Shown here: one piece after another, positions 693-11,032 of the stretch
How the letters are laid out: each line of letters begins with the position of its first letter
Position numbering within the stretch: the first letter of the stretch is position 1
Source of the DNA: an uncultured bacterium
Lineage (GTDB): Bacteria; Lernaellota; Lernaellaia; Lernaellales; Lernaellaceae
DNA: 24,932 bases
Direction: 5' to 3'
Assembly: GCA_964534375.1 (NCBI GenBank)
Contig: CAZHPN010000081.1
Span: 1 to 24,932, forward strand
Notes under the pieces: generated by a model
What the model saw: only the letters and a program-made list of their open reading frames with translations
What the model was told of the DNA's origin: nothing
The model's database searches: none
Translations under genes and position numbers: made by a program

Positions 693-781
693 TAGGGCCG
701 CGCCTGAATCCCGACTTGGCCGCGCCTTAGGTAAGATCCCGGCCCTGCCCGACATACAGTTCGCGAACACTGTCATAAATT
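693..781 (+). promoter_or_regulatory. Phased-box promoter cassette, copy 1 (upstream of the beta-barrel genes)
   Basis: Boxes end at 707 (GCGCCTGA), 729 (GCGCCTTA) and 752 (GCCCGA, followed by CATAC). TAAATT at 776-781 lies 21 bp after CCGACA. Confidence 0.7.
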
Positions 782-824
782 GCCGCCGAGCCATTTCTAT
801 CGACCTTGTCGCGAAGGACCAACC

Positions 825-2132
825 ATGAGACGAATGTTGCTCGTCCTGATTTTGATTTTCGCTGCCTTCACGGCGACGGCGCGCGCGTCCTGGGAAATCG
901 AGGCGATGGGCGGTTCCGCGTACAACCTGCCGCTGCCGTTGTCCATCCATCAACACGACGAACCCAATATGGACTTTCTCGCGCGCTACGACGAGCGAAC
1001 GTTCGTCAGCACGCCGTATTACGCCTGGCGGACCGGTTGGTGGTTCGACAACAACCAGGCTATCGAATTCGAACAGATTCACCACAAAATCACGCTGACC
1101 AACCGGGGCGACGCCGGACCGGGCAACATCGAATGGTTCGAAATTTCGCACGGCTGCAACCTGATGTACTTCGACTGGGCGATCAACGTCTGCCCGGCGC
1201 TCGACGCGGCGGGCAACCCGATCTGGTGGCACGATTTCATCGTGCGTTTGGGCGCCGGCCCGGTGATCACGCATCCGGAAGGCGAAGTGCGCCACCGGCG
1301 ATTGCCCAGCGGCTCCGGTTTGCTGCGCATGGGCTACTACCTTTCCGGCGAAACCGTCCAGGTCGCGGTGGAAAAGCGATTTTACCTCTGGAAGAGGCTG
1401 TTCCTGTCCCTGGAAGTCAAAAACACCGATTCCTACGTAACGGTTCCCGTGTGGCACGGCAATGCGGACGTGCCCAATGCGGCCTGGCACGGCTTGCTCG
1501 GCGTCGGCTACGAATTTTTCCGCAAAGACCCCAAGAAGAGCGTCGTCATCCAGGAAAGCACCCCGGCGCGAAACCCCGCGCCGGACAGCATCGCAGGGTT
1601 TCCGCCGCCGGAAACGCCGCCGAAGCCGCCCGTGGCCCTGCTCACCGCCCGCCCCGAGTACGGCATCGGCGGCGCGTTCAACCCGCGTGCGCATTGGGGC
1701 GGCGCGGCGCTCGAACCGTACATCATGCCGACCCCGGATCGCGGGTTTATCGTCTCGCCGTTGCTGACCTTCGGCTGGGGGTCCAGCGGGACGCTCAGCA
1801 GCTACAATTTTTCGCAATACGCGATCGCGGTCGGCCTCGGCTACCAATGGTATTTCGGGGCCGAAAAGGCGACGAGTTTGTATTTGATGGCGCACTTCGG
1901 CGGCGGCCAGATCACGCGGCAAAAATACCTTTCGGGCGGATTCGGGTATGCCGACGCGACGATCGGCTCGTTGCACCGCTGGAAAAACGGCTTCCTGCTC
2001 GGCGGCGCGTTGATCGCGGACGGCCTCTTCGGGCGCCACACGCAATCCAGCGAGATTTTTGGCGGCTCGAACGCCGTCGGCGACCTTGAGATGTGGCGGC
2101 TGGGCGCCGTGCTGGGTTACGCGATCAAGTGA
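825..2132 (+). CDS. Secreted two-domain outer-membrane beta-barrel protein (LpxQ-like N-terminal barrel plus a second barrel-like domain)
   Basis: ATG 825 follows GAAGGA; signal peptide MRRMLLVLILIFAAFTATARA. Domain 1 has PYYAWRTGWW, EQIHHK, FEISHGCN and GAGPVITHPE and ends GVGYEF (nt 1517). A Pro-rich linker leads to domain 2, with alternating aromatic/Gly strands, homologous to CDS 2262-2858. Confidence 0.7.
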   Translation: MRRMLLVLILIFAAFTATARASWEIEAMGGSAYNLPLPLSIHQHDEPNMDFLARYDERTFVSTPYYAWRTGWWFDNNQAIEFEQIHHKITLTNRGDAGPGNIEWFEISHGCNLMYFDWAINVCPALDAAGNPIWWHDFIVRLGAGPVITHPEGEVRHRRLPSGSGLLRMGYYLSGETVQVAVEKRFYLWKRLFLSLEVKNTDSYVTVPVWHGNADVPNAAWHGLLGVGYEFFRKDPKKSVVIQESTPARNPAPDSIAGFPPPETPPKPPVALLTARPEYGIGGAFNPRAHWGGAALEPYIMPTPDRGFIVSPLLTFGWGSSGTLSSYNFSQYAIAVGLGYQWYFGAEKATSLYLMAHFGGGQITRQKYLSGGFGYADATIGSLHRWKNGFLLGGALIADGLFGRHTQSSEIFGGSNAVGDLEMWRLGAVLGYAIK

Positions 2133-2261
2133 TGCGGCGCTGCGCGACGCCGGAAGGGAGCGTCATTATGATAGTGATGCGCCCGGACAGCGTTCCGGAG
2201 CCGGCGGCATGGCGCCGGCGCAGGTGGGTTTGGAACCACGCGCGCGCAGGAGGGAGCCGCG

Positions 2262-2858
2262 ATGAAGCGATTGGCCTTGATCGTTTGGCTGGCGACGGCG
2301 TCAACGCTCGTCATTTCCGCGGGGTCGTCGGCGCAGGATCTTCCGGAAATGCCGCCCTGGTTGCCCGCGACCGTGCTCACGGCCCGCCCGGAGTTCGGCG
2401 TCAGCGGCGCCTTCGGCCCGCGCACGGCGTGGGGCGGCTTGACGCTCGAACCGTGGTTCATGCCGACGCCGGATCGCCAGTTCATCGCGGCGCCAATGGC
2501 GTCGTTCGGCTGGGGCGCGGGCCGTCTTGACGTGTTTTCGCAGTGGGCCGTCGCGATCGGCCTCGGATACCAATGGTATTTCGGCGCCGCGCAAGCGACG
2601 AATGTGTACCTCATGGCGCACGTCGGCGGCGGCCAGATCACCCGACGAGAATTTCCCACCATGCCGTTCGGCTACGGCGACGTGACGCTCGGCTCGCTGC
2701 ACCGCTGGAAAAACGGCTTCGTGTTCGGCGGCGCGTTGATCGCCGACGGCCTCGTCGGACGCACGACGCGCTCGGACAAGATCTTCGGCGGCCCGGCGTG
2801 GCCCGGCTATCTCGAGATGTGGCGGCTCGGTTTGGTTTTCGGTTACGCGGTGCATTGA
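2262..2858 (+). CDS. Putative small outer-membrane beta-barrel protein, paralogue of the C-terminal domain of the upstream gene
   Basis: GGAGGGAG RBS; signal peptide; shares LTARPE, MPTPDR, GLGYQWYFGA, YLMAHxGGGQITR, GSLHRWKNGF, GGALIADGL and LEMWRLG with the upstream protein. Confidence 0.75.
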   Translation: MKRLALIVWLATASTLVISAGSSAQDLPEMPPWLPATVLTARPEFGVSGAFGPRTAWGGLTLEPWFMPTPDRQFIAAPMASFGWGAGRLDVFSQWAVAIGLGYQWYFGAAQATNVYLMAHVGGGQITRREFPTMPFGYGDVTLGSLHRWKNGFVFGGALIADGLVGRTTRSDKIFGGPAWPGYLEMWRLGLVFGYAVH

Positions 2859-2897
2859 CGCGCCCCGGCGCCGCGTCGCGACCATCGCGGCCGTGCG

Positions 2898-2987
2898 TAG
2901 GGCCGCGCCTTAGGCGAAACCCCGCTTGCGCCTTATGCGAAATGTCGGCCTCGCCCGACATACGGACCGCCCATGATTCCTTAGACT
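2898..2987 (+). promoter_or_regulatory. Phased-box promoter cassette, copy 2 (upstream of the response regulator)
   Basis: Boxes end at 2912, 2935 and 2958. Perfect inverted repeat ATGTCGG-N6-CCGACAT at 2942-2961. TAGACT at 2982-2987 lies 21 bp after CCGACA. Confidence 0.7.
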
Positions 2988-3009
2988 CCGGCGTCAACAA
3001 GCTTGCGAC

Positions 3010-3711
3010 TTGTTTCGCGACGGAAACAAGCCGGCGAAAACTCCGGGGGCGGCATTGGGTGGAATCAGGAAAACGCGCGTCTTTCTGGTCGACGACCATC
3101 CGCTCGTGCGCGAGTGGCTCACCAACATGATCAACCAGCAGCCCGACCTGGTCGTTTGCGGCGAGGCCGACGGCGCGCCGCAGGCCCTGGAAGCGATCGG
3201 CGGCGCCAGGCCGCAGGTGGCCATCGTCGATCTTTCGCTGAAAAGCGGCTCCGGTTTGGAGCTGGTCAAGAACCTCAAGCAAACGTGCCCGGACGTCGCG
3301 GTCGTCGTTCTCTCGATGCACGACGAAATGCTCTACGCCGAACGCGTGTTCCGCGCCGGCGCGCGCGGCTACGTCATGAAACGGGAATCGACCTCAAAAG
3401 TGGTCGAGGCGATTCGCAGCGTCGTCAACGGCAAGCGCTTCATCAGCGAGCGCGTCGCCGCGGCGATGGTCGAGAGACTGGTCGAGGGCCCGCCGGACGG
3501 CGCGTCGCCCGTCGCTTCGCTGACCGATCGCGAGTTGGAAGTCTTCGAGCTGCTGGGGCAAGGCAAGGAAACACGCGAAATCGCCGCGATGTTGCACGTC
3601 AGCGTCAAAACCGTGCAAGCGTTTTACGCCCTCATCAAGAGAAAATTGAACGTGGCGACCGAGCGCGAACTGCTGCGCGAAGCCATTCGCTGGCACGAAA
3701 ACCGTTCGTGA
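3010..3711 (+). CDS. NarL/FixJ-family DNA-binding response regulator (REC + LuxR HTH); start uncertain
   Basis: VFLVDDHPLVR, phosphoacceptor IVDLSL, LSMH and GYVMK in the receiver domain; C-terminal LTDRELEVFELLGQGKETREIAAMLHVSVKTV. Confidence 0.93.
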   Translation: MFRDGNKPAKTPGAALGGIRKTRVFLVDDHPLVREWLTNMINQQPDLVVCGEADGAPQALEAIGGARPQVAIVDLSLKSGSGLELVKNLKQTCPDVAVVVLSMHDEMLYAERVFRAGARGYVMKRESTSKVVEAIRSVVNGKRFISERVAAAMVERLVEGPPDGASPVASLTDRELEVFELLGQGKETREIAAMLHVSVKTVQAFYALIKRKLNVATERELLREAIRWHENRS

Positions 3712-3736
3712 CGCCGCGCGCAATCGGCTGGGCGCA

Positions 3737-3848
3737 TAGGGCGGCGCCTTATGTGGTTCGGTGGTCGCGCCCTATGCAAGAATTCGGCCTCGCCCGACGA
3801 GATATTCGGCTCCGCCCGACATACATTTCATAAGTGTTTCTTTAGAAT
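3737..3848 (+). promoter_or_regulatory. Phased-box promoter cassette, copy 3 (upstream of the RND operon)
   Basis: Four boxes end at 3751, 3774, 3797 and 3819. TAGAAT at 3843-3848 lies 21 bp after CCGACA. Confidence 0.7.
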
Positions 3849-4176
3849 TTTTTCCGTGACGGCCGGTTGACGGCGTCGGTTTGCCGAACGAACGAAGCGC
3901 GATGGCAAACATTCGGCGCGCCGGGCGGCACAGGCGAGCCGCCGCCGATCGGGCGCGGGCCGCCGCTTCGCTTCGTTTTTTCGCTCTTTTGCATTGATGA
4001 ATTCTTTGCGCCACGGCGCCCCGTCTTTACGATTTCTTGATCTGCGGAGCGTTACGTTTTTCGTGCGGAGCGGCAGCGGAGCCATCCGCAAGCTTCCGAG
4101 GCGCGTGAAATTTCAAGAAGTGCGGCCGCTTGGCGGCGGGCGGGGCGGCCCGCCGCGCAGGGAAAGGAAGTGTTTG

Positions 4177-5556
4177 ATGAGAAGAACCGGGATCGAGCTC
4201 GCGAGCCTGTTCGCGGCGCCGATGTTGCTGGCGGCGGCGCTGTGCCTCGCGATCCCGGCCGCGTTCGCCGCGGAACCGGCGGCGTCGGCGAACCGCGACG
4301 CTGACGATGCGGTCCCCGCGAGCCTCTCGCTGGCCGAGGCCGAGCGCATTTTTCTCGAACGCGGACTCGATCTGCTGATCGCCGAAAACGGCGTCGAGGG
4401 CGCCCAGGGCGATCTGGCCGCGGCCGGCGCCGTTCCCAATCCGAACCTCGCCGTGACGGCCGACGTCGTGCCCAAACTCAATCGCGACATCCTCTACAAA
4501 AACATCGGCAAGTACATTCCGGCGAACGTCTGGGGGTTGGGCATCGGCTTGAGCGACAACGCCGCCATCGAAGACCAACTCTCGGGCAAGCGTTCGCTGC
4601 GCATCCTGGCAATGTCGAAGGCCTTGGCCGCGGCGCGGCTGAACGTCGAGGACATCAAACGCGTCGAACTGCCGCAACTGCGCGAGGCGTATGTTGCGGC
4701 GGTGATGGCCAAACTCAATCTCGACGCCGCGAAGGAATCCTTCGAAACGTTCGACACGCAGCTCAAGCTGAACCAGATGCGGTACGACCACGGCGCCATC
4801 AACGCGTTGGACCTTTCCCGCGTCCTGCAGGCGCAACTCGAAGCGCTGCAAGCGATCGACCAGGCGCAGGACGGCGTGCAGCAGGCGATGTCCGCGCTGC
4901 TGTTCCTGCTCGGCGTGCGCAGCGGCCTGCCGCAGGTCGCGCTCACCTCCGGCATCGGGTACGCGCCGTCAACGCTGCTCAAAGCCGCCACGATTCAGTC
5001 GCTCCACGAACTGGCGACGAAAAATCGCACGGACGTCAAGATCGCCGTCGCCAACATGGAGCAAGCCGATGCGGCGTTGCGTCAAGCCAAACGGTCGCGC
5101 CTGCCCGACATTCAACTGAATCTGGGGTACTCGGAAATTTGCGAGGGCGCCAACTGTTCGTCCGAGCCGGCGTTCAGCTTCGGCCTGCAAGGAAACCTGC
5201 CGATTTTCTATCAGCAGCACGGCGAAATTCAACGCGCGAGCGCCAATGTTCTGGCCGCCCAACGAACGGTCGAGAAGGCCAAAGCCCAGGTGCTTTCCGA
5301 TGTTGCGCAGGCCTATGCCGGCTTTGACGCGGCCCGCAAGCAAGTCGAGCGGATGGAAAGCAAACTCCTCGAACAGGCCAAGCTGTCGCGCGATCTCGCG
5401 CAGCACATGTACCAGAACGGCGCCGCCTCGCTCATCGACTTCTTCGATGCGCAGCGGCAGTACGTCGCCACGAAGCTCGAATACAACCAGGACCTCGCGA
5501 ACTATTGGTCCGCCGTCTACCAGCTCGAACAAGCCACGGCCACCCCCCTGCGGTGA
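4177..5556 (+). CDS. czcC: TolC/CzcC-family outer-membrane efflux channel
   Basis: ATG 4177 follows GGAAAGGAAG; signal peptide; LSLAEA, PNPNL, RLPDIQL, LPIFYQQHGEIQRA, YQNGAASLIDFFDAQR and LEQATA. First gene of a C-B-A operon. Confidence 0.88.
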   Translation: MRRTGIELASLFAAPMLLAAALCLAIPAAFAAEPAASANRDADDAVPASLSLAEAERIFLERGLDLLIAENGVEGAQGDLAAAGAVPNPNLAVTADVVPKLNRDILYKNIGKYIPANVWGLGIGLSDNAAIEDQLSGKRSLRILAMSKALAAARLNVEDIKRVELPQLREAYVAAVMAKLNLDAAKESFETFDTQLKLNQMRYDHGAINALDLSRVLQAQLEALQAIDQAQDGVQQAMSALLFLLGVRSGLPQVALTSGIGYAPSTLLKAATIQSLHELATKNRTDVKIAVANMEQADAALRQAKRSRLPDIQLNLGYSEICEGANCSSEPAFSFGLQGNLPIFYQQHGEIQRASANVLAAQRTVEKAKAQVLSDVAQAYAGFDAARKQVERMESKLLEQAKLSRDLAQHMYQNGAASLIDFFDAQRQYVATKLEYNQDLANYWSAVYQLEQATATPLR

Positions 5557-5567
5557 GGAGCAACGAC

Positions 5568-7835
5568 ATGACTTTGGCAAGAGCACTGATTCTTCTCATC
5601 CTCGGCGCCTTGCTGGCCGCCTGCGCGGAAAGCGCGGCCAACGCGCCGGACAACGTCCCGCGCGCGGGCCCGGAATGGCGGTACATGCGCGGCTCGGGCT
5701 GGGTGCGCGTCAGGCCGACCGACATCCCGCCCGCCGACGAGGTGTGGCTATCCGAGGCGCAAATGACGAAGGCCGGCATCCGGATCGCCGTGGCCGCCGA
5801 GCAGGACATTCCGCAGGCGATTACGGTCGGCGGGCGCATCGCGTTCAACGATCTTCGCGTCACGCACGTCTTTTCGCCGGTCACGGGCCGCGTGACGCGC
5901 GTGTTTGCGCAGCCGGGGCAGCGACTCAAGAAGGGCGCGCCGTTGCTGGCCATCGCGTCGCCCGATGTCGGCCAGGCGTTCTCCGACGTCGTGAAGGCGC
6001 AGGCGGGTTTGGCGGCCGGGGAAGCCGATTTTCACCGCCAGGAAATTCTGTTCCGGTCCGGCGCCGCGCCGCAACGCGATTTCGAAGGCGCCGAGGACAA
6101 TTACCGCAAGGCGAAGGCGGAATATGACCGCGCGCAGCAACGGGCAGCAGCGCTCAAGTCCGGCTCGCTCGACGCGGTGACGCAGGAATACACGCTTCGC
6201 AGCTTTATCGAGGGCGAGGTCATCGCCCGCATGGCGAATCCGGGCGCCGAGGTGCAGGGCCAATACTCGGGCGGAACCTCCAACGAACTTTTCACGATTG
6301 GCGACATCAAAGAGGTTTGGCTTTTCGCGGACGTGCAGGACACCGACTTGCCGCGCGTCCATGTTGGCGGCGACGCGGAAATCCGCGTCGTCGCGTATCC
6401 GGGCCGGGTTTTCCGCGGGAAAATCGACTGGATCTCGGAGACCGTGGACCCGGTCCTGCGCACCGCGCGGGTTCGTTGCGTGCTGCCCAACGAGAGTGAA
6501 GAGTTGAAACCCGAGATGTTCGCGACCGCGTCGCTCGTGCAGCCGCCGGTGCGCCGGCTTGCCGTGCCCGCCGAGACGGTTGTCCGCATCAACGAGACTT
6601 CGTTCGTCTTCGTCGCGGACGGCAAGCGGCCCGACGGGCGCATGATCTTCAAGCGCCGGGCCGTGGCCCTGGGCCAACGCGAGGGGGATTTGGCGGTGAT
6701 TGCCGGCGGCCTGAACCCCGGCGAACGCGTGGTCACCGAGGGCTCGATCAGCCGCGACCAGCCGAACGACGAGGCGTGGCCGACGCAAGAGCAACTCGAG
6801 GCCGCCGGCATCAAGACGGCCGTGGTCGAGGAGCGCGACGTGGATGACGCGGTGTCGGTCGGCGGTCGCCTGACTTTCGACGACCTGCGCATCAGCCATG
6901 TCTTCTCGCCCGTGAACGGCCGCATCACGAAAGTCTTGGCCAAGCTCGGCCAGCAGGTGGAAAAAGGCACGCCGCTGGCGGCCATCTCGTCGCCCGACGT
7001 GGGCCAGTTCGTTTCGGACGTGGTCAAGGCGAAGGCCGACCTCATCGCGGCCGAGCACGAGCATCAGCGGCAGAAAGATTTGTACGGCTATTCCCCGACC
7101 GCACACGCCGGCACACTGAAAGACCTCGAAGCCGCCGAAAGCGCCTGGCGCAACGCCAAAGCCGAATTCGATCGCGCGCAGCAAAAAGCCCAATTGCTGA
7201 AGGCCGGGTCGGTCGACGATGTCACGCAGGAGTACATCCTGCGCAGCCCGATCGCCGGCGAGGTCGTGGCGCGGGCCGCCAATCCGGGCCTCGAGGTTCA
7301 GGGCCAGTACTCGACCGGCAGCAACGTCGTCGAGCTGTTTACGATCGGCAACGTCGATCGCTTGTTGGTGTTGGGCGACGTCTACGAGATGGACCTGCCG
7401 CACATCGCGAAGGGCGACGACGCGGCGGTCACGGTAGCCGCGTACCCGAATCTGCACTTGCACGGCGTCGTCGATTGGGTGGCGAGCGCACTCGACCCCG
7501 TGCTGCGCACCGCGAAAGTGCGCTGCATCATCGACAACCCAGACCATTTATTGAAGCCGGAAATGTATGAATCGCTGCGCATCTCTGTGCCGGGCAAGCG
7601 AATGCTGGCGATCCCGCGGCAGGCGCTGATGCGCGTCGAAAAGGACACCGTGGTGTTCGTCGCCACCGGCGAGCGCAAGGATGGCGGCGCGGTGGTCTTT
7701 AAGCGCCGCAAGGTCGTCGCGCTGGAAGACCGCCCCGGGGCCATGGTGCCGGTGCTGAACGGGCTCGAACCGGGCGAAACCATCGCCATCGAACACCCGA
7801 TGCTGCTCCTCGGGATGATCGAGGCGCGTTCATGA
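5568..7835 (+). CDS. RND periplasmic adaptor (CzcB-like) lipoprotein containing two complete tandem MFP units
   Basis: GAGGAG RBS; lipobox LAAC. Repeats begin at about 5736 and 6768 (344-aa period). Each has HVFSPVxGR(V/I)T, an alpha-hairpin, LRSxIxGEV, ELFTIG, DPVLRTA, LKPEM, FKRRxV and GLxPGE. Confidence 0.92.
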   Translation: MTLARALILLILGALLAACAESAANAPDNVPRAGPEWRYMRGSGWVRVRPTDIPPADEVWLSEAQMTKAGIRIAVAAEQDIPQAITVGGRIAFNDLRVTHVFSPVTGRVTRVFAQPGQRLKKGAPLLAIASPDVGQAFSDVVKAQAGLAAGEADFHRQEILFRSGAAPQRDFEGAEDNYRKAKAEYDRAQQRAAALKSGSLDAVTQEYTLRSFIEGEVIARMANPGAEVQGQYSGGTSNELFTIGDIKEVWLFADVQDTDLPRVHVGGDAEIRVVAYPGRVFRGKIDWISETVDPVLRTARVRCVLPNESEELKPEMFATASLVQPPVRRLAVPAETVVRINETSFVFVADGKRPDGRMIFKRRAVALGQREGDLAVIAGGLNPGERVVTEGSISRDQPNDEAWPTQEQLEAAGIKTAVVEERDVDDAVSVGGRLTFDDLRISHVFSPVNGRITKVLAKLGQQVEKGTPLAAISSPDVGQFVSDVVKAKADLIAAEHEHQRQKDLYGYSPTAHAGTLKDLEAAESAWRNAKAEFDRAQQKAQLLKAGSVDDVTQEYILRSPIAGEVVARAANPGLEVQGQYSTGSNVVELFTIGNVDRLLVLGDVYEMDLPHIAKGDDAAVTVAAYPNLHLHGVVDWVASALDPVLRTAKVRCIIDNPDHLLKPEMYESLRISVPGKRMLAIPRQALMRVEKDTVVFVATGERKDGGAVVFKRRKVVALEDRPGAMVPVLNGLEPGETIAIEHPMLLLGMIEARS

Positions 7836-10800
7836 TGCAGCGCATCGTCGGTTTTGTCCTGCGGTACCGCGTCGCGGTCGCGGCGCTCGCCGCCTGCCTC
7901 GTCGTCGCCGGGCTCGCCGCGTTTCACGAGTTGCCGATCGAGGCCTACCCGAACCCGGTGCCGCCGCTGGTCGAAGTGATCGCCCAGCCGCCCGGGTGGA
8001 GCGCCGAGGAAACCGAGCGCTACGTCACGATTCCGCTCGAAATCGGTCTCTCGGGGATTCCGGGCCTCGACCACATCCGCTCGCAGTCGCTCTTCGGTCT
8101 GGCGGACGTGAAGTGCTATTTCAAATGGGGCACGGCCTACAAAGACGCGCGCCAGGAAGTCATCAATCGGCTGCAATTCATCACGCTCCCGTCGGGCATT
8201 CAGGGGCAGTTGTCGCCATGGAACGCCATTGGCGAGATCTTTCGCTACCGGCTCGTCGACCGGATTTACGAGGACCAAAAACAGCAACTTGAGAAAGAGA
8301 TTAAAGACCCCGGCGAACTCGAAGCGAAACTCAAACCGCTGAGAGAAACGAGCCTGCTCAAACTCAAAGCGATCGAAGACTGGGTGATGGAGCGCCAGTG
8401 GAAGCAGGTGCCCGGCGTCATCGACGTGACCAGCTACGGCGGGCTTTCGAAGGAGTACCACGTCGAGGTTGACCCCTACCGCCTGAAAGGCCGCGGGGCG
8501 ACGCTGGCGCAGCTCACGACGGCGATCGCCAACGCCAACCAAAACGTCGGCGGCCAGCGGCTCGAGTTGGGCGACCAGTCGTTCACGGTCCGCGGCATCG
8601 GGCTGATCGGCTCGCTCAAGGATATCGGCGATATCGTCGTGCTCGAACAAAAGGGCATCCCGGTGCGCGTCCGCGACGTGGCCGACGTGCGCATCGGCTG
8701 GTCGCCGCGCCTGGGCATCGTGGGCAAGGACGACGACGCGGACATCGTGCAGGGCATCGTGTTGATGCAGTACGGCGCGGAGACGGCGAAAACGCTCGCC
8801 GGCGTCCGGCAACGCCTCAAGCATATCCGCCAATTCGTCCTGCCCCCCGACCAGGGCGTCGAAATCGTGCCGTATTACGACCGCGGCGCCTTGGTGGATA
8901 TCACAACACGCACCGTCATGGAAAACCTCCTCATGGGGATGGGCCTCGTCGTTGTGATATTGATCCTGTTCCTGGGCAACGTGCGCGCCGCGCTGGTGAC
9001 GGCGCTCAACATCCCCCTGGCGCTGCTCGTCGCGTTCTGCGGCATGGTCGTCATGGGCGCCTCGGCGAACCTGATTTCTCTGGGCGCGGTCGATTTCGGC
9101 ATTGTCGTCGACTCGACGGTCATCATGGTGGAGAACATCTTCCGCCATCTCGGCAAGCACGGGACCGGCGGGATTCGCAAGCGCGTCTGGACCGCCGCCG
9201 GCGAAGTCGGACGGCCGATGGCCTATTCCACCGTGATTATCGGCGTCGCATTCCTGCCCTTGTTCATGATGAAAGGCACCTCGGGCGTCATTTTCTCCCC
9301 GATGGCCCACACCTACGCCCTCGCGATCGGCGGCGCGATCATCCTCGCGTTGACGCTGACGCCGGCGGTCGCCACGTGGGTTTTGCCGGCAACGGCTGAA
9401 GAGAAAGAAAGCCGCGTCATGCAGTTTTTGCAGCGCCTGTACGCCCCGCTCTTCGACCGGGCGTTGCGGCATCCGAAGGGCGCGTTGCTGTTGATGCTCG
9501 TGCCGATTCTGCTGTGCGTCGTGCTTTTTCCGTTCCTCGGCGGCGAATTCATGCCCAAGCTCGAAGAGGGAAATTTCTGGATTCGCGCCACCCTGCCAAT
9601 GTCCATTTCGCTGACCGAATCGGCGACGCAGGTGGGCGGGATGCGCAGCATTCTGAAGAGCCACCCGGAAGTGCTGTCGGTCGTCTCGCAACTCGGGCGG
9701 CCCGACGACGGCACCGACGTCGCCGGCTTTAACAACATCGAACTGTTCGCGCCGCTCAAGCCGTTTGGCGAGTGGCCGCGCGGGCTCACCAAGGAGAAGC
9801 TGACGGCGCAATTGGAGAAGGAATTCGAGCGCGGCTTCCCCGGCGTGATTTTCAATTTCTCCCAATACATCTCGGACAATGTCGAGGAAGCCGTCTCCGG
9901 CGTGAAGGGCGAAAACAGCGTCAAGGTTTACGGCCCCGACGTCGCCAAGAACGATTCGGCGGCGGGCGCGATTGTCGACGCTATGGGCAAGGTCCCCGGC
10001 ATCGAAGATCTCGGTCTGTTCCGTTCGATGGGCCAGCCCAGCATCAAGATCGCGCCGGATCGCGTGGCGCTGGAACGCTACGGCCTCAACACGGGCGATG
10101 TCATGGCGGTGGTCGCCGCGACGATCGGCGGCCAGGCCGTGACGCAGGTCTACGAAGGCGAGAAGAGTTTCGCGCTGACGGTCCGCTGGAAGGAGCAATA
10201 TCGCAACGGCGTCGACGCCATCCGGCAAATCGCCGTGGCCTCGCCCGACGGCAGCCAGATTCCGCTGGGGCAACTCGCGTCCGTGACCGAGGAGCCGAGC
10301 CCGTCGGTCATATACCGGGAAGACGGCCAGCGGTATTCGCCGGTGAAATTCTCGGTGCGCGGCCGCGACCTGCAATCCACCATCGCCGCGTCGCAGCGCA
10401 CGATCGCGCAGGCGGTCCGGCTGCCGGCCGACAGCCACCTCGAATGGAGCGGCGAAATCAACGAACTCGAAGAGGCGAGGGGGCGCCTGAGTCTCATCAT
10501 TCCGTTGACGCTCCTCATCATCGCGTTCCTCACGTATAGCGCCGTGAGAAACTGGATCGACACGGTGATCGTCCTGATCGATATCCCGCTGGCCTGCACC
10601 GGTGGCCTGCTGGCGCTGCTCATCACCGGCGAGCCGTTCTCGGTGTCCGCCGCGATGGGTTTCATCTCCATCTTCGGCATCGCCATTCAGAGCGCGATTC
10701 TCGTTGTGACCTATGCGCAACGGCAATGGGCCGAAGGCAAATCCCTGGTCGAAGGCGCACGCGAAGCCGCGAAACAGCGCTTCCGCCCGATTCTGATGAC

Positions 10801-11032
10801 GACCGTGGTGGCGATGCTCGGCTTGCTGCCCGCGGCGCTGTCGCACGGCATCGGCGCGCAGACGCAGCGGCCGCTGGCGATCGTCGTAATCGGCGGCTCG
10901 CTGATCCTCGCCGTTTTGACCCAGGTGCTCCAGCCGCCGCTGCTGGTGCTCGCGCACGGGTGGCTCGACAAGAAAAACGGCGGGGCGACGCCCTCACCGA
11001 CGATTCCGGCGCCCATCGTCCCAGCCGATTGA
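7832..11032 (+). CDS. czcA: CzcA/CusA-family heavy-metal efflux RND transporter
   Basis: 1066 aa; ATGA overlap with the adaptor gene; LPIEAYP, TM4 motif GAVDFGIVVDSTVIMVEN, EFMPKLEEG, RFRPILMT and QRPLAIVVIGG. Confidence 0.93.
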   Translation: MMQRIVGFVLRYRVAVAALAACLVVAGLAAFHELPIEAYPNPVPPLVEVIAQPPGWSAEETERYVTIPLEIGLSGIPGLDHIRSQSLFGLADVKCYFKWGTAYKDARQEVINRLQFITLPSGIQGQLSPWNAIGEIFRYRLVDRIYEDQKQQLEKEIKDPGELEAKLKPLRETSLLKLKAIEDWVMERQWKQVPGVIDVTSYGGLSKEYHVEVDPYRLKGRGATLAQLTTAIANANQNVGGQRLELGDQSFTVRGIGLIGSLKDIGDIVVLEQKGIPVRVRDVADVRIGWSPRLGIVGKDDDADIVQGIVLMQYGAETAKTLAGVRQRLKHIRQFVLPPDQGVEIVPYYDRGALVDITTRTVMENLLMGMGLVVVILILFLGNVRAALVTALNIPLALLVAFCGMVVMGASANLISLGAVDFGIVVDSTVIMVENIFRHLGKHGTGGIRKRVWTAAGEVGRPMAYSTVIIGVAFLPLFMMKGTSGVIFSPMAHTYALAIGGAIILALTLTPAVATWVLPATAEEKESRVMQFLQRLYAPLFDRALRHPKGALLLMLVPILLCVVLFPFLGGEFMPKLEEGNFWIRATLPMSISLTESATQVGGMRSILKSHPEVLSVVSQLGRPDDGTDVAGFNNIELFAPLKPFGEWPRGLTKEKLTAQLEKEFERGFPGVIFNFSQYISDNVEEAVSGVKGENSVKVYGPDVAKNDSAAGAIVDAMGKVPGIEDLGLFRSMGQPSIKIAPDRVALERYGLNTGDVMAVVAATIGGQAVTQVYEGEKSFALTVRWKEQYRNGVDAIRQIAVASPDGSQIPLGQLASVTEEPSPSVIYREDGQRYSPVKFSVRGRDLQSTIAASQRTIAQAVRLPADSHLEWSGEINELEEARGRLSLIIPLTLLIIAFLTYSAVRNWIDTVIVLIDIPLACTGGLLALLITGEPFSVSAAMGFISIFGIAIQSAILVVTYAQRQWAEGKSLVEGAREAAKQRFRPILMTTVVAMLGLLPAALSHGIGAQTQRPLAIVVIGGSLILAVLTQVLQPPLLVLAHGWLDKKNGGATPSPTIPAPIVPAD

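Follow-up and report, generated by a model that had tools for sequence, protein, structure and literature searches.

Phased operator-promoter cassettes outline a candidate NarL-family regulon of barrels, regulator and efflux pump in an uncultured Lernaellota bacterium

The window studied here is a stretch of 24,932 nucleotides (contig CAZHPN010000081.1, or C81) from an uncultured bacterium of the family Lernaellaceae, whose 6.3 Mb genome is called G000 below; its other contigs carry C numbers, and the loci of its relatives L numbers. Three copies of an operator-promoter cassette stand in the window, ahead of two barrel genes, an orphan NarL/FixJ response regulator and a CzcCBA-type efflux operon. 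Our results suggest that these cassettes are activator-dependent sigma-70 promoters of the class II type known from BvgA and DevR. They would be bound, like a further copy on contig C122, by the regulator encoded in the window, after phosphorylation in trans by a kinase encoded on contig C48. We give this reading a probability of roughly 70%. It builds on the anatomy of the cassettes, their rarity, their link to a regulator subfamily, the fixed offset of the -10 hexamer and the covariation between one regulator residue and one flanking base, all of which are observed directly. From these we infer binding, cooperativity, activation and the pairing with the kinase.

Anatomy of the cassettes

The three cassettes consist of three, three and four inverted-repeat boxes, respectively, placed 22–23 bp apart and followed by a core promoter in which CATAC(A/G) lies 17 nt ahead of a TAnnnT hexamer. 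All are on the forward strand. In cassette 1, the operator array (693–752) has boxes at 693–707, 715–729 and 738–752, centred at -88, -66 and -43 relative to a transcription start site predicted near 788, and the core promoter (753–781) combines a poor -35 element, CATACA (753–758), with the -10 hexamer TAAATT (776–781) after 17 nt. Cassette 2, ahead of the regulator gene, has boxes at 2898–2912, 2921–2935 and 2944–2958 (array 2898–2958; centres -89, -66 and -43) and a core promoter at 2959–2987 with CATACG in the -35 region, TAGACT (2982–2987) as -10 hexamer and a predicted start near 2994. Cassette 3 precedes the pump operon. Its array (3737–3819) has boxes at 3737–3751, 3760–3774, 3783–3797 and 3805–3819 (centres -111, -88, -65 and -43), and its core promoter (3820–3848) has CATACA in the -35 region, TAGAAT (3843–3848) as -10 hexamer and a predicted start near 3855, followed by a leader of ~320 nt. 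Cassette 3 begins 25 nt past the regulator stop codon, a position that is conserved across the subfamily described below.

At the level of the letters, the original prediction, made from the sequence of the window, proved accurate. All ten boxes end where it placed them (707/729/752; 2912/2935/2958; 3751/3774/3797/3819), the three cassettes share an architecture that starts with TAGGGC(C/G)GCGCCT(G/T)A and ends with CCCGACATAC, and TAAATT, TAGACT and TAGAAT each start 21 nt after CCGACA. The spacer is indeed unconserved, as only 6–7 of the 18 bases between CATAC and the hexamer are common to the copies. Some of its interpretations have to be revised. The terminal CGG-N6-CCGA is present, but it is not a separate element: it repeats the same box in degenerate form at the proximal position, and the -35 region is CATAC(A/G). 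This assignment follows from CAGAC being the commonest word after the proximal box in foreign sites. The boxes were also thought to lie on one face of the helix, which is roughly true for neighbouring boxes only; spacings of 22, 23, 23, 23, 23, 23 and 22 bp imply an offset of ~35–70 degrees at 10.5 bp per turn. By the same arithmetic, boxes 1 and 4 of cassette 3 are 68 bp or ~6.5 turns apart, and hence on different faces of straight B-DNA. Finally, the pump promoter does have the most boxes (four), but the fourth appears to be a duplicate of the 22-bp proximal unit, and graded tuning need not follow. The duplicated stretch would comprise boxes 3 and 4 (3783–3827), where TACATT at 3822–3827 could be a second -10 hexamer, serving box 3.

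The letters of the cassettes were uniform in DNA contigs from four wetland runs wherever these covered them, with gappy coverage. A consensus sigma-70 scan called no promoters, and terminators were at chance level. The pump leader folds no better than shuffled sequences (z 0.28), so there is no case for a riboswitch; no Rfam match in the window reached the gathering score, and 3700–4250 contained only two matches, at chance level.

Rarity in the host genome

The 6.3 Mb genome has five occurrences of a box followed after 22–23 bp by a second box, CA(T/G)AC, 17–19 nt and TA. Three are in the window, one is at C122:18092 and one on the minus strand at C48:26323. A dispersed repeat would occur genome-wide regardless of gene orientation. 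Instead, these five are the only full cassettes (partial matches on C143 and C11, which lack the -10 hexamer or CATAC, were excluded), and every one is sense-oriented, upstream of a gene on the same strand. The first-box pattern occurs three times, always in the window, against 0.025 occurrences expected under an order-5 Markov model, although this expectation is flattering because the pattern was defined on those very sites.

CC(C/T)GACATAC occurs eight times in the genome, five times with an upstream box 22–23 bp away. Of these five, four carry TAnnnT at precisely the cassette offset and one carries TAGATC; none of the three box-less words has either at that offset (background 0.002 per position). 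All five cassettes share GACATAC. The cassette on C122 precedes a lipoprotein gene, one member of an Lcl-domain lipoprotein family. Hence, the regulon first proposed for the window cassettes would extend beyond the window, and the same cassette is also used by the paralogous system on C48.

A promoter type shared by a regulator subfamily

For a test outside the host genome, 160 loci around relatives of the regulator were fetched, of which 151 were scored and nine dropped for lack of downstream sequence. They were grouped by protein alone into 91 with a KT(V/I)(Q/H) recognition helix and 60 without, and scored leave-one-out with a two-box model to which G000 contributed neither seeds nor training sequences. 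A cassette was found behind the regulator stop codon for 46 of the 91 regulators with this helix and for one of the 60 others; the kin are not independent, and the figures are given as a contrast without a p-value. The consensus of the subfamily is TGTAGG-N7-CCTACA with an A-rich spacer and a weaker box 23 bp further on, the columns of the distal box carrying up to 2.0 bits and those of the proximal box at most 1.3 bits. In 41 of 48 loci the cassette starts no more than 40 nt from the regulator stop codon.

The core promoter is conserved as well. Of 51 unique foreign sites, 22 have TAnnnT 45–48 nt past the distal box, compared to a mean of 2.6 and a maximum of 8 in 2000 shuffles, and the modal offset of 46 is that of all G000 copies. 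At the -35 position CAGAC is the commonest word (13 of 51), and CATAC varies freely in other genomes. When applied to G000, the foreign-only model ranked the C48 cassette, the C122 cassette and the window cassette at 2896 first to third. This comparison across genomes ties the cassette both to a regulator subfamily and to a -10 hexamer at fixed offset. Mismatches between the arms of the palindromes were of all types (33 G-T, 25 A-C and 29 other, against 228 paired positions) and showed no strand bias, as expected of a protein site on double-stranded DNA rather than an RNA stem.

The subfamily is large: of 8000 proteins scored, 4833 reached E <= 1e-60, a count that includes more distant relatives. 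Its members come chiefly from Verrucomicrobiota and other bacteria of soils and wetlands. The next gene or genes were scanned in 35 of the 48 cassette-bearing loci. Sixteen loci had efflux genes (outer-membrane efflux protein, OEP, or membrane-fusion protein, MFP), eight pilin-like and four methyltransferase genes, two other genes, and five gave no match. In many Verrucomicrobiota (L006, L022, L023, L028, L104, L129, L131 and L156) a type IV pilin-like gene replaces the pump as the target of the module. Extra cassettes stand upstream of the kinase-regulator genes at L005:4435, L121:314 and L162:695, which suggests that autoregulation occurs elsewhere in the subfamily. A related two-box cassette, its centre resembling GGGGA(A/T)TCCCC, accompanies the more distant regulators of L035, L036, L205 and L210.

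The regulator, its paralog and the kinase

The regulator gene (3055–3711, forward strand) encodes a receiver domain and a GerE domain, both scoring above cutoff (PF00072, 83.5 bits; PF00196, 51.2 bits). Its start is probably the TTG at 3055, as inferred from the start of the C48 paralog; the longest open reading frame runs from 3010. The phosphorylation residues D10, D11, D56, S84 and K106 are invariant in 22 aligned sequences, the window protein included. The protein is below the NCBIfam equivalog cutoffs of UvrY/GacA (131 vs 280 bits), NarL (108 vs 250), EvgA (82 vs 251), RcsB (67 vs 235) and FixJ (63 vs 255), and judged by these scores it is no ortholog of any of these named families.

As predicted, the regulator is adjacent to the cassettes, but it has no kinase beside it, nor is there a kinase gene anywhere in the window, which makes it an orphan. 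The C48 locus is complete: a membrane kinase of ~345 residues with a HisKA_3 domain, a regulator, a two-box cassette directly behind the regulator stop codon and another OEP-MFP-CzcA operon. Divergent from the kinase is an Nramp gene. The two regulators are 87% identical, with a dN/dS of 0.13 indicating purifying selection, and are sisters (100/98) on a tree built on 60 chosen rows with the recognition helix unmasked. As part of the reading favoured here, the C48 locus would represent the ancestral layout, and the window regulator would have arisen by duplication of the C48 regulator.

Among G000 proteins, the C48 kinase alone matches the N-terminus of the subfamily kinases, which is found in 68 of the 91 subfamily loci and in eight of the 60 others. 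For its sensor domain there were only sub-threshold DUF4118 matches. Most likely, the window regulator is phosphorylated in trans by this membrane kinase. Neither the regulator (at E <= 1e-45) nor the cassette pattern was found in 16 relatives of the same class, whereas the barrel family of the gene at 2262–2858 is native to the class (11 of 17 genomes). This suggests that the system was acquired laterally and then recruited native genes. At the barrel loci of seven class relatives that were scanned, no cassette of the G000 type was found.

Helix position +8 and the flanking base

Counting from the Lys of KTV as position 0, the subfamily has Arg at position +8 of the recognition helix. The window regulator has Leu (codon 3631–3633), the sole case among its 120 best protein matches, bar one Ser and four sequences that the pattern did not parse. 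With the flank columns zeroed in the count, 48 of 48 unique sites at Arg loci were flanked by G...C. The His loci L088 and L101 have A...T flanks, and L197, a His locus of the same clade that was found afterwards, has A...T as predicted. The seven non-terminal boxes of the window have the 3' flanks A, G, G, T, T, T and C, six of the seven without C. The C122 box is flanked by A...T, so that seven of the eight non-terminal boxes of window and C122 lack the 3' C, and the C48 regulator, with Arg, has G...C at its own box. On the tree, the changes to Leu and to His are separate events. Outside the subfamily, flank-free scans paired Arg with C in L067 and L075 (2 of 2) and His or Asn with T in L035, L036 and L205 (3 of 4), on few sites, not all of them assured. 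When 351 and 401 Verrucomicrobiota genomes, in overlapping samples, were searched by pattern, three new non-Arg cases within the subfamily emerged (L165, L176 and L197), one of them with a site.

In the structural studies cited here, the base contacts described for solved complexes lie at positions 0, +3 and +4 (LiaR Lys174, Lys177 and Thr178; RcsB K180 and S184; PMC4482077, PMC5829831; see also a DegU model, PMC9263151). The outer portion of the half-site is read by position +4, and it is plausible that a long side chain placed one turn beyond it extends to the adjacent base on the outside. Arg at +8 is also present in DevR, the relative of solved structure that best matches the subfamily profile (E 8.7e-39). 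It is likely, as the fair reading of these sequences, that Arg at +8 demands a G:C flank pair and that loss of Arg relaxes this demand. We regard this as a hint of a likely one-residue code, in which the residue at +8 sets the flank base that the regulator reads. The covariation points to the window regulator as the owner of the window and C122 promoters.

A separate NarL two-component system of the host, unrelated to the present one, has phased cassettes of its own at C247:2979 and C247:6263, with GTAGGCG-N4-CGCCTAC-type boxes at a period of ~24 bp. Both have CATAAT downstream and stand ahead of two similar exported-protein genes, and a further copy lies at C329:3199. The regulator of this system also has Arg at +8, with G...C flanks.

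Proposed mechanism and its standing

We propose that the C48 kinase phosphorylates both regulators, which have an identical receiver helix 1. A phosphorylated dimer would bind the strong distal inverted repeat, with its core TAGG-N7-CCTA, and further dimers would be recruited to the weaker boxes in steps of 22–23 bp. The last dimer, near -43, would abut the poor -35 element and recruit RNA polymerase to the good -10 hexamer. The window regulator would thereby raise its own level in a positive loop via cassette 2 and switch on the barrels, the CzcCBA-type pump and the C122 lipoprotein, and the C48 paralog would drive the second CzcCBA pump. The signal might be an envelope or divalent-metal cue, a guess based on CzcA-type pumps as the commonest targets and on the Nramp gene divergent from the C48 kinase.

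Several observations weigh against this scheme. Almost half of the subfamily regulators (45 of 91) have no cassette directly behind them, and the foreign-only model leaves window cassettes 1 and 3 below threshold (2.0 and 10.0 at best). The period of 23 bp is an inexact helical repeat. A second kinase may be absent from the data, as the assembly is 94% complete and C81 ends 690 bp upstream of cassette 1. Inside the subfamily, two independent events underlie the flank rule, and the motif model was seeded with G...C sites, even if the flanks were zeroed for the count. L210, outside the subfamily, breaks the strict rule with His and G...C flanks; the non-Arg regulators of L127, L128, L165 and L176 have no site nearby, and searches of genomes G140 and G041 for sites returned only coding or unrelated matches. 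Moreover, a 5' G is retained in the first boxes of cassettes 1 and 2 (693 and 2898), and a 3' C in every proximal box, so that the window cassettes may respond to the C48 paralog too.

This last point leads to an alternative explanation with the same promoter type, in which there is redundancy between the paralogs, or all five cassettes depend mainly on the C48 regulator as activator, the window copy providing amplification only; Leu would merely relax specificity. The 87% identity of the paralogs agrees with it, and so do their identical residues at the helix positions 0, +3 and +4 that contact bases in LiaR and RcsB (PMC4482077, PMC5829831), the retained flank bases and the mixed flanks of the non-Arg regulators. 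However, the 3' C that is present in every one of the 48 Arg-type distal boxes is missing from seven of the eight non-terminal boxes in the window and on C122, and we consider this explanation unlikely.

Alternatively, the boxes might bind a different, unlinked factor or define a promoter for an alternative sigma factor, with the regulator as only one of the targets. The failure of the consensus scan to call a canonical sigma-70 promoter and the GACATAC shared by all five G000 copies would fit such a factor. Yet the motif tracks the helix type of the regulator across several phyla (46/91 vs 1/60), it is not found in the 16 class relatives where the regulator is likewise not found, and CATAC is not kept in other genomes, all of which makes an unlinked factor very improbable. 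A GTAG-type repeat resembling repetitive extragenic palindromes, or an RNA hairpin or terminator left behind stop codons, is disfavoured even more: the palindromes do begin with GTAG in most genomes, usually 0–40 nt past a stop codon, but copy numbers are low (five in G000, and 0–3 perfect palindromes in five other genomes), the arm mismatches lack strand bias, the -10 hexamer keeps a fixed offset, and the copies at 693 and on C122 stand upstream of genes without a preceding regulator stop codon.

A wider scenario can be tentatively sketched, which we think possible rather than probable. A portable kinase-regulator module, with its output promoter behind the regulator stop codon, would capture whichever gene lies downstream. 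After transfer and duplication, the change from Arg to Leu at +8 would have released the G:C requirement and given one kinase two partly insulated regulons, the new copy recruiting the native barrels and the lipoprotein. Position +8 would then be a determinant of base specificity beyond 0, +3 and +4.

Genes of the window

The gene behind cassette 1 (825–2132, forward strand) encodes an exported protein without Pfam or NCBIfam match, probably a two-domain outer-membrane beta-barrel protein. Its N-terminal half is followed by a proline-rich linker and a C-terminal half that resembles the product of the next gene (65% identity). This next gene (2262–2858, forward strand), probably co-transcribed with the first, encodes a small outer-membrane beta-barrel, with Atlas feature scores of 0.97–0.98 and TM-scores of 0.64–0.75 to outer-membrane protein barrels. 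Divergent from these, a membrane-protein gene without Pfam match lies within 2–630 on the minus strand; it starts at 580, and TAGAAT is found at 630–625 on that strand. Cassette 1 might also affect this gene.

Cassette 3 is followed on the forward strand by the genes of a CzcC-like OEP (4177–5556; PF02321), an MFP (5565–7835) and a CusA/CzcA-family permease of the resistance-nodulation-division (RND) type (7832–11032). The MFP is a head-to-tail fusion of two CusB/HlyD modules in tandem, with two HlyD_D23 and two TIGR01730 stretches. The permease scores 821 bits with TIGR00914, above the cutoff of 701, and has the OEP and MFP genes adjacent, as expected of the CusA/CzcA family, with metal export as a prediction only. 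The permease of the C48 pump is also above this cutoff.

Comparison with known systems

Among the closest parallels are the promoters Pfha and Pptx of Bordetella. There, the NarL-family regulator BvgA occupies, as head-to-head dimers, inverted repeats ~22 bp apart, with a strong distal site and a weak proximal site that abuts an imperfect, non-consensus -35 element; CTGACC in Pptx lies 21 bp from the -10 element, as CC/CTGACA does here (PMC7250471). The present system differs in its period, which is mostly 23 bp, in its box core TAGG-N7-CCTA and in a regulon of few envelope genes; in addition, the window regulator, at 82 bits, does not come near the 251-bit cutoff of the EvgA model. BvgS is a hybrid sensor kinase, whereas the kinase proposed here is a small HisKA_3 membrane kinase.

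DevR/DosR of Mycobacterium tuberculosis likewise binds at least two tandem boxes, a conserved primary and a degenerate secondary one, at -42.5 and -63.5, the proximal position being close to the -43 found here; the test with +5 and +10 insertions has already been done in that system (PMC3177182). The DevR box of 18 bp with a period of 21 bp contrasts with the 15–19-bp box and 23-bp period of our system, and the targets differ (PMC3177182). Moreover, the C48-type kinase has no match to a GAF or heme domain. The UvrY/SirA/GacA box, TGTAAG-N6-CTTACA, has nearly the same half-site as the subfamily consensus, but its spacer is one base shorter and the site is single, at -183 together with integration host factor, instead of an array beside the -35 element (PMC4682653). 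The score of the window regulator, 131 bits, is also well below the UvrY/GacA cutoff of 280.

The OEP-MFP-CzcA operon next to a two-component regulator resembles the heavy-metal RND systems of the CzcCBA type, and both pumps score above the TIGR00914 cutoff. The classical regulators CzcR and CusR belong to the OmpR family. In contrast, the pump here would be controlled by a NarL-family system whose membrane sensor weakly resembles DUF4118, and the same module precedes pilin-like or methyltransferase genes elsewhere.

A literature search on the subfamily, the motif or a helix-flank code returned nothing relevant within its coverage, which excluded most subscription journals. The promoter layout is the known class II layout of BvgA and DevR, and a specialist may find it tidy rather than startling, as this design is already established for both. 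The motif, the widespread regulator subfamily and the hint at position +8 appear not to have been described before. With a motif and a complete promoter geometry assigned to this large, uncharacterised subfamily of NarL regulators, its targets become readable from sequence. The host genome also offers a small test case for a regulon split by a duplicated regulator, with two proteins of 87% identity, five promoters, one candidate residue and one base pair.

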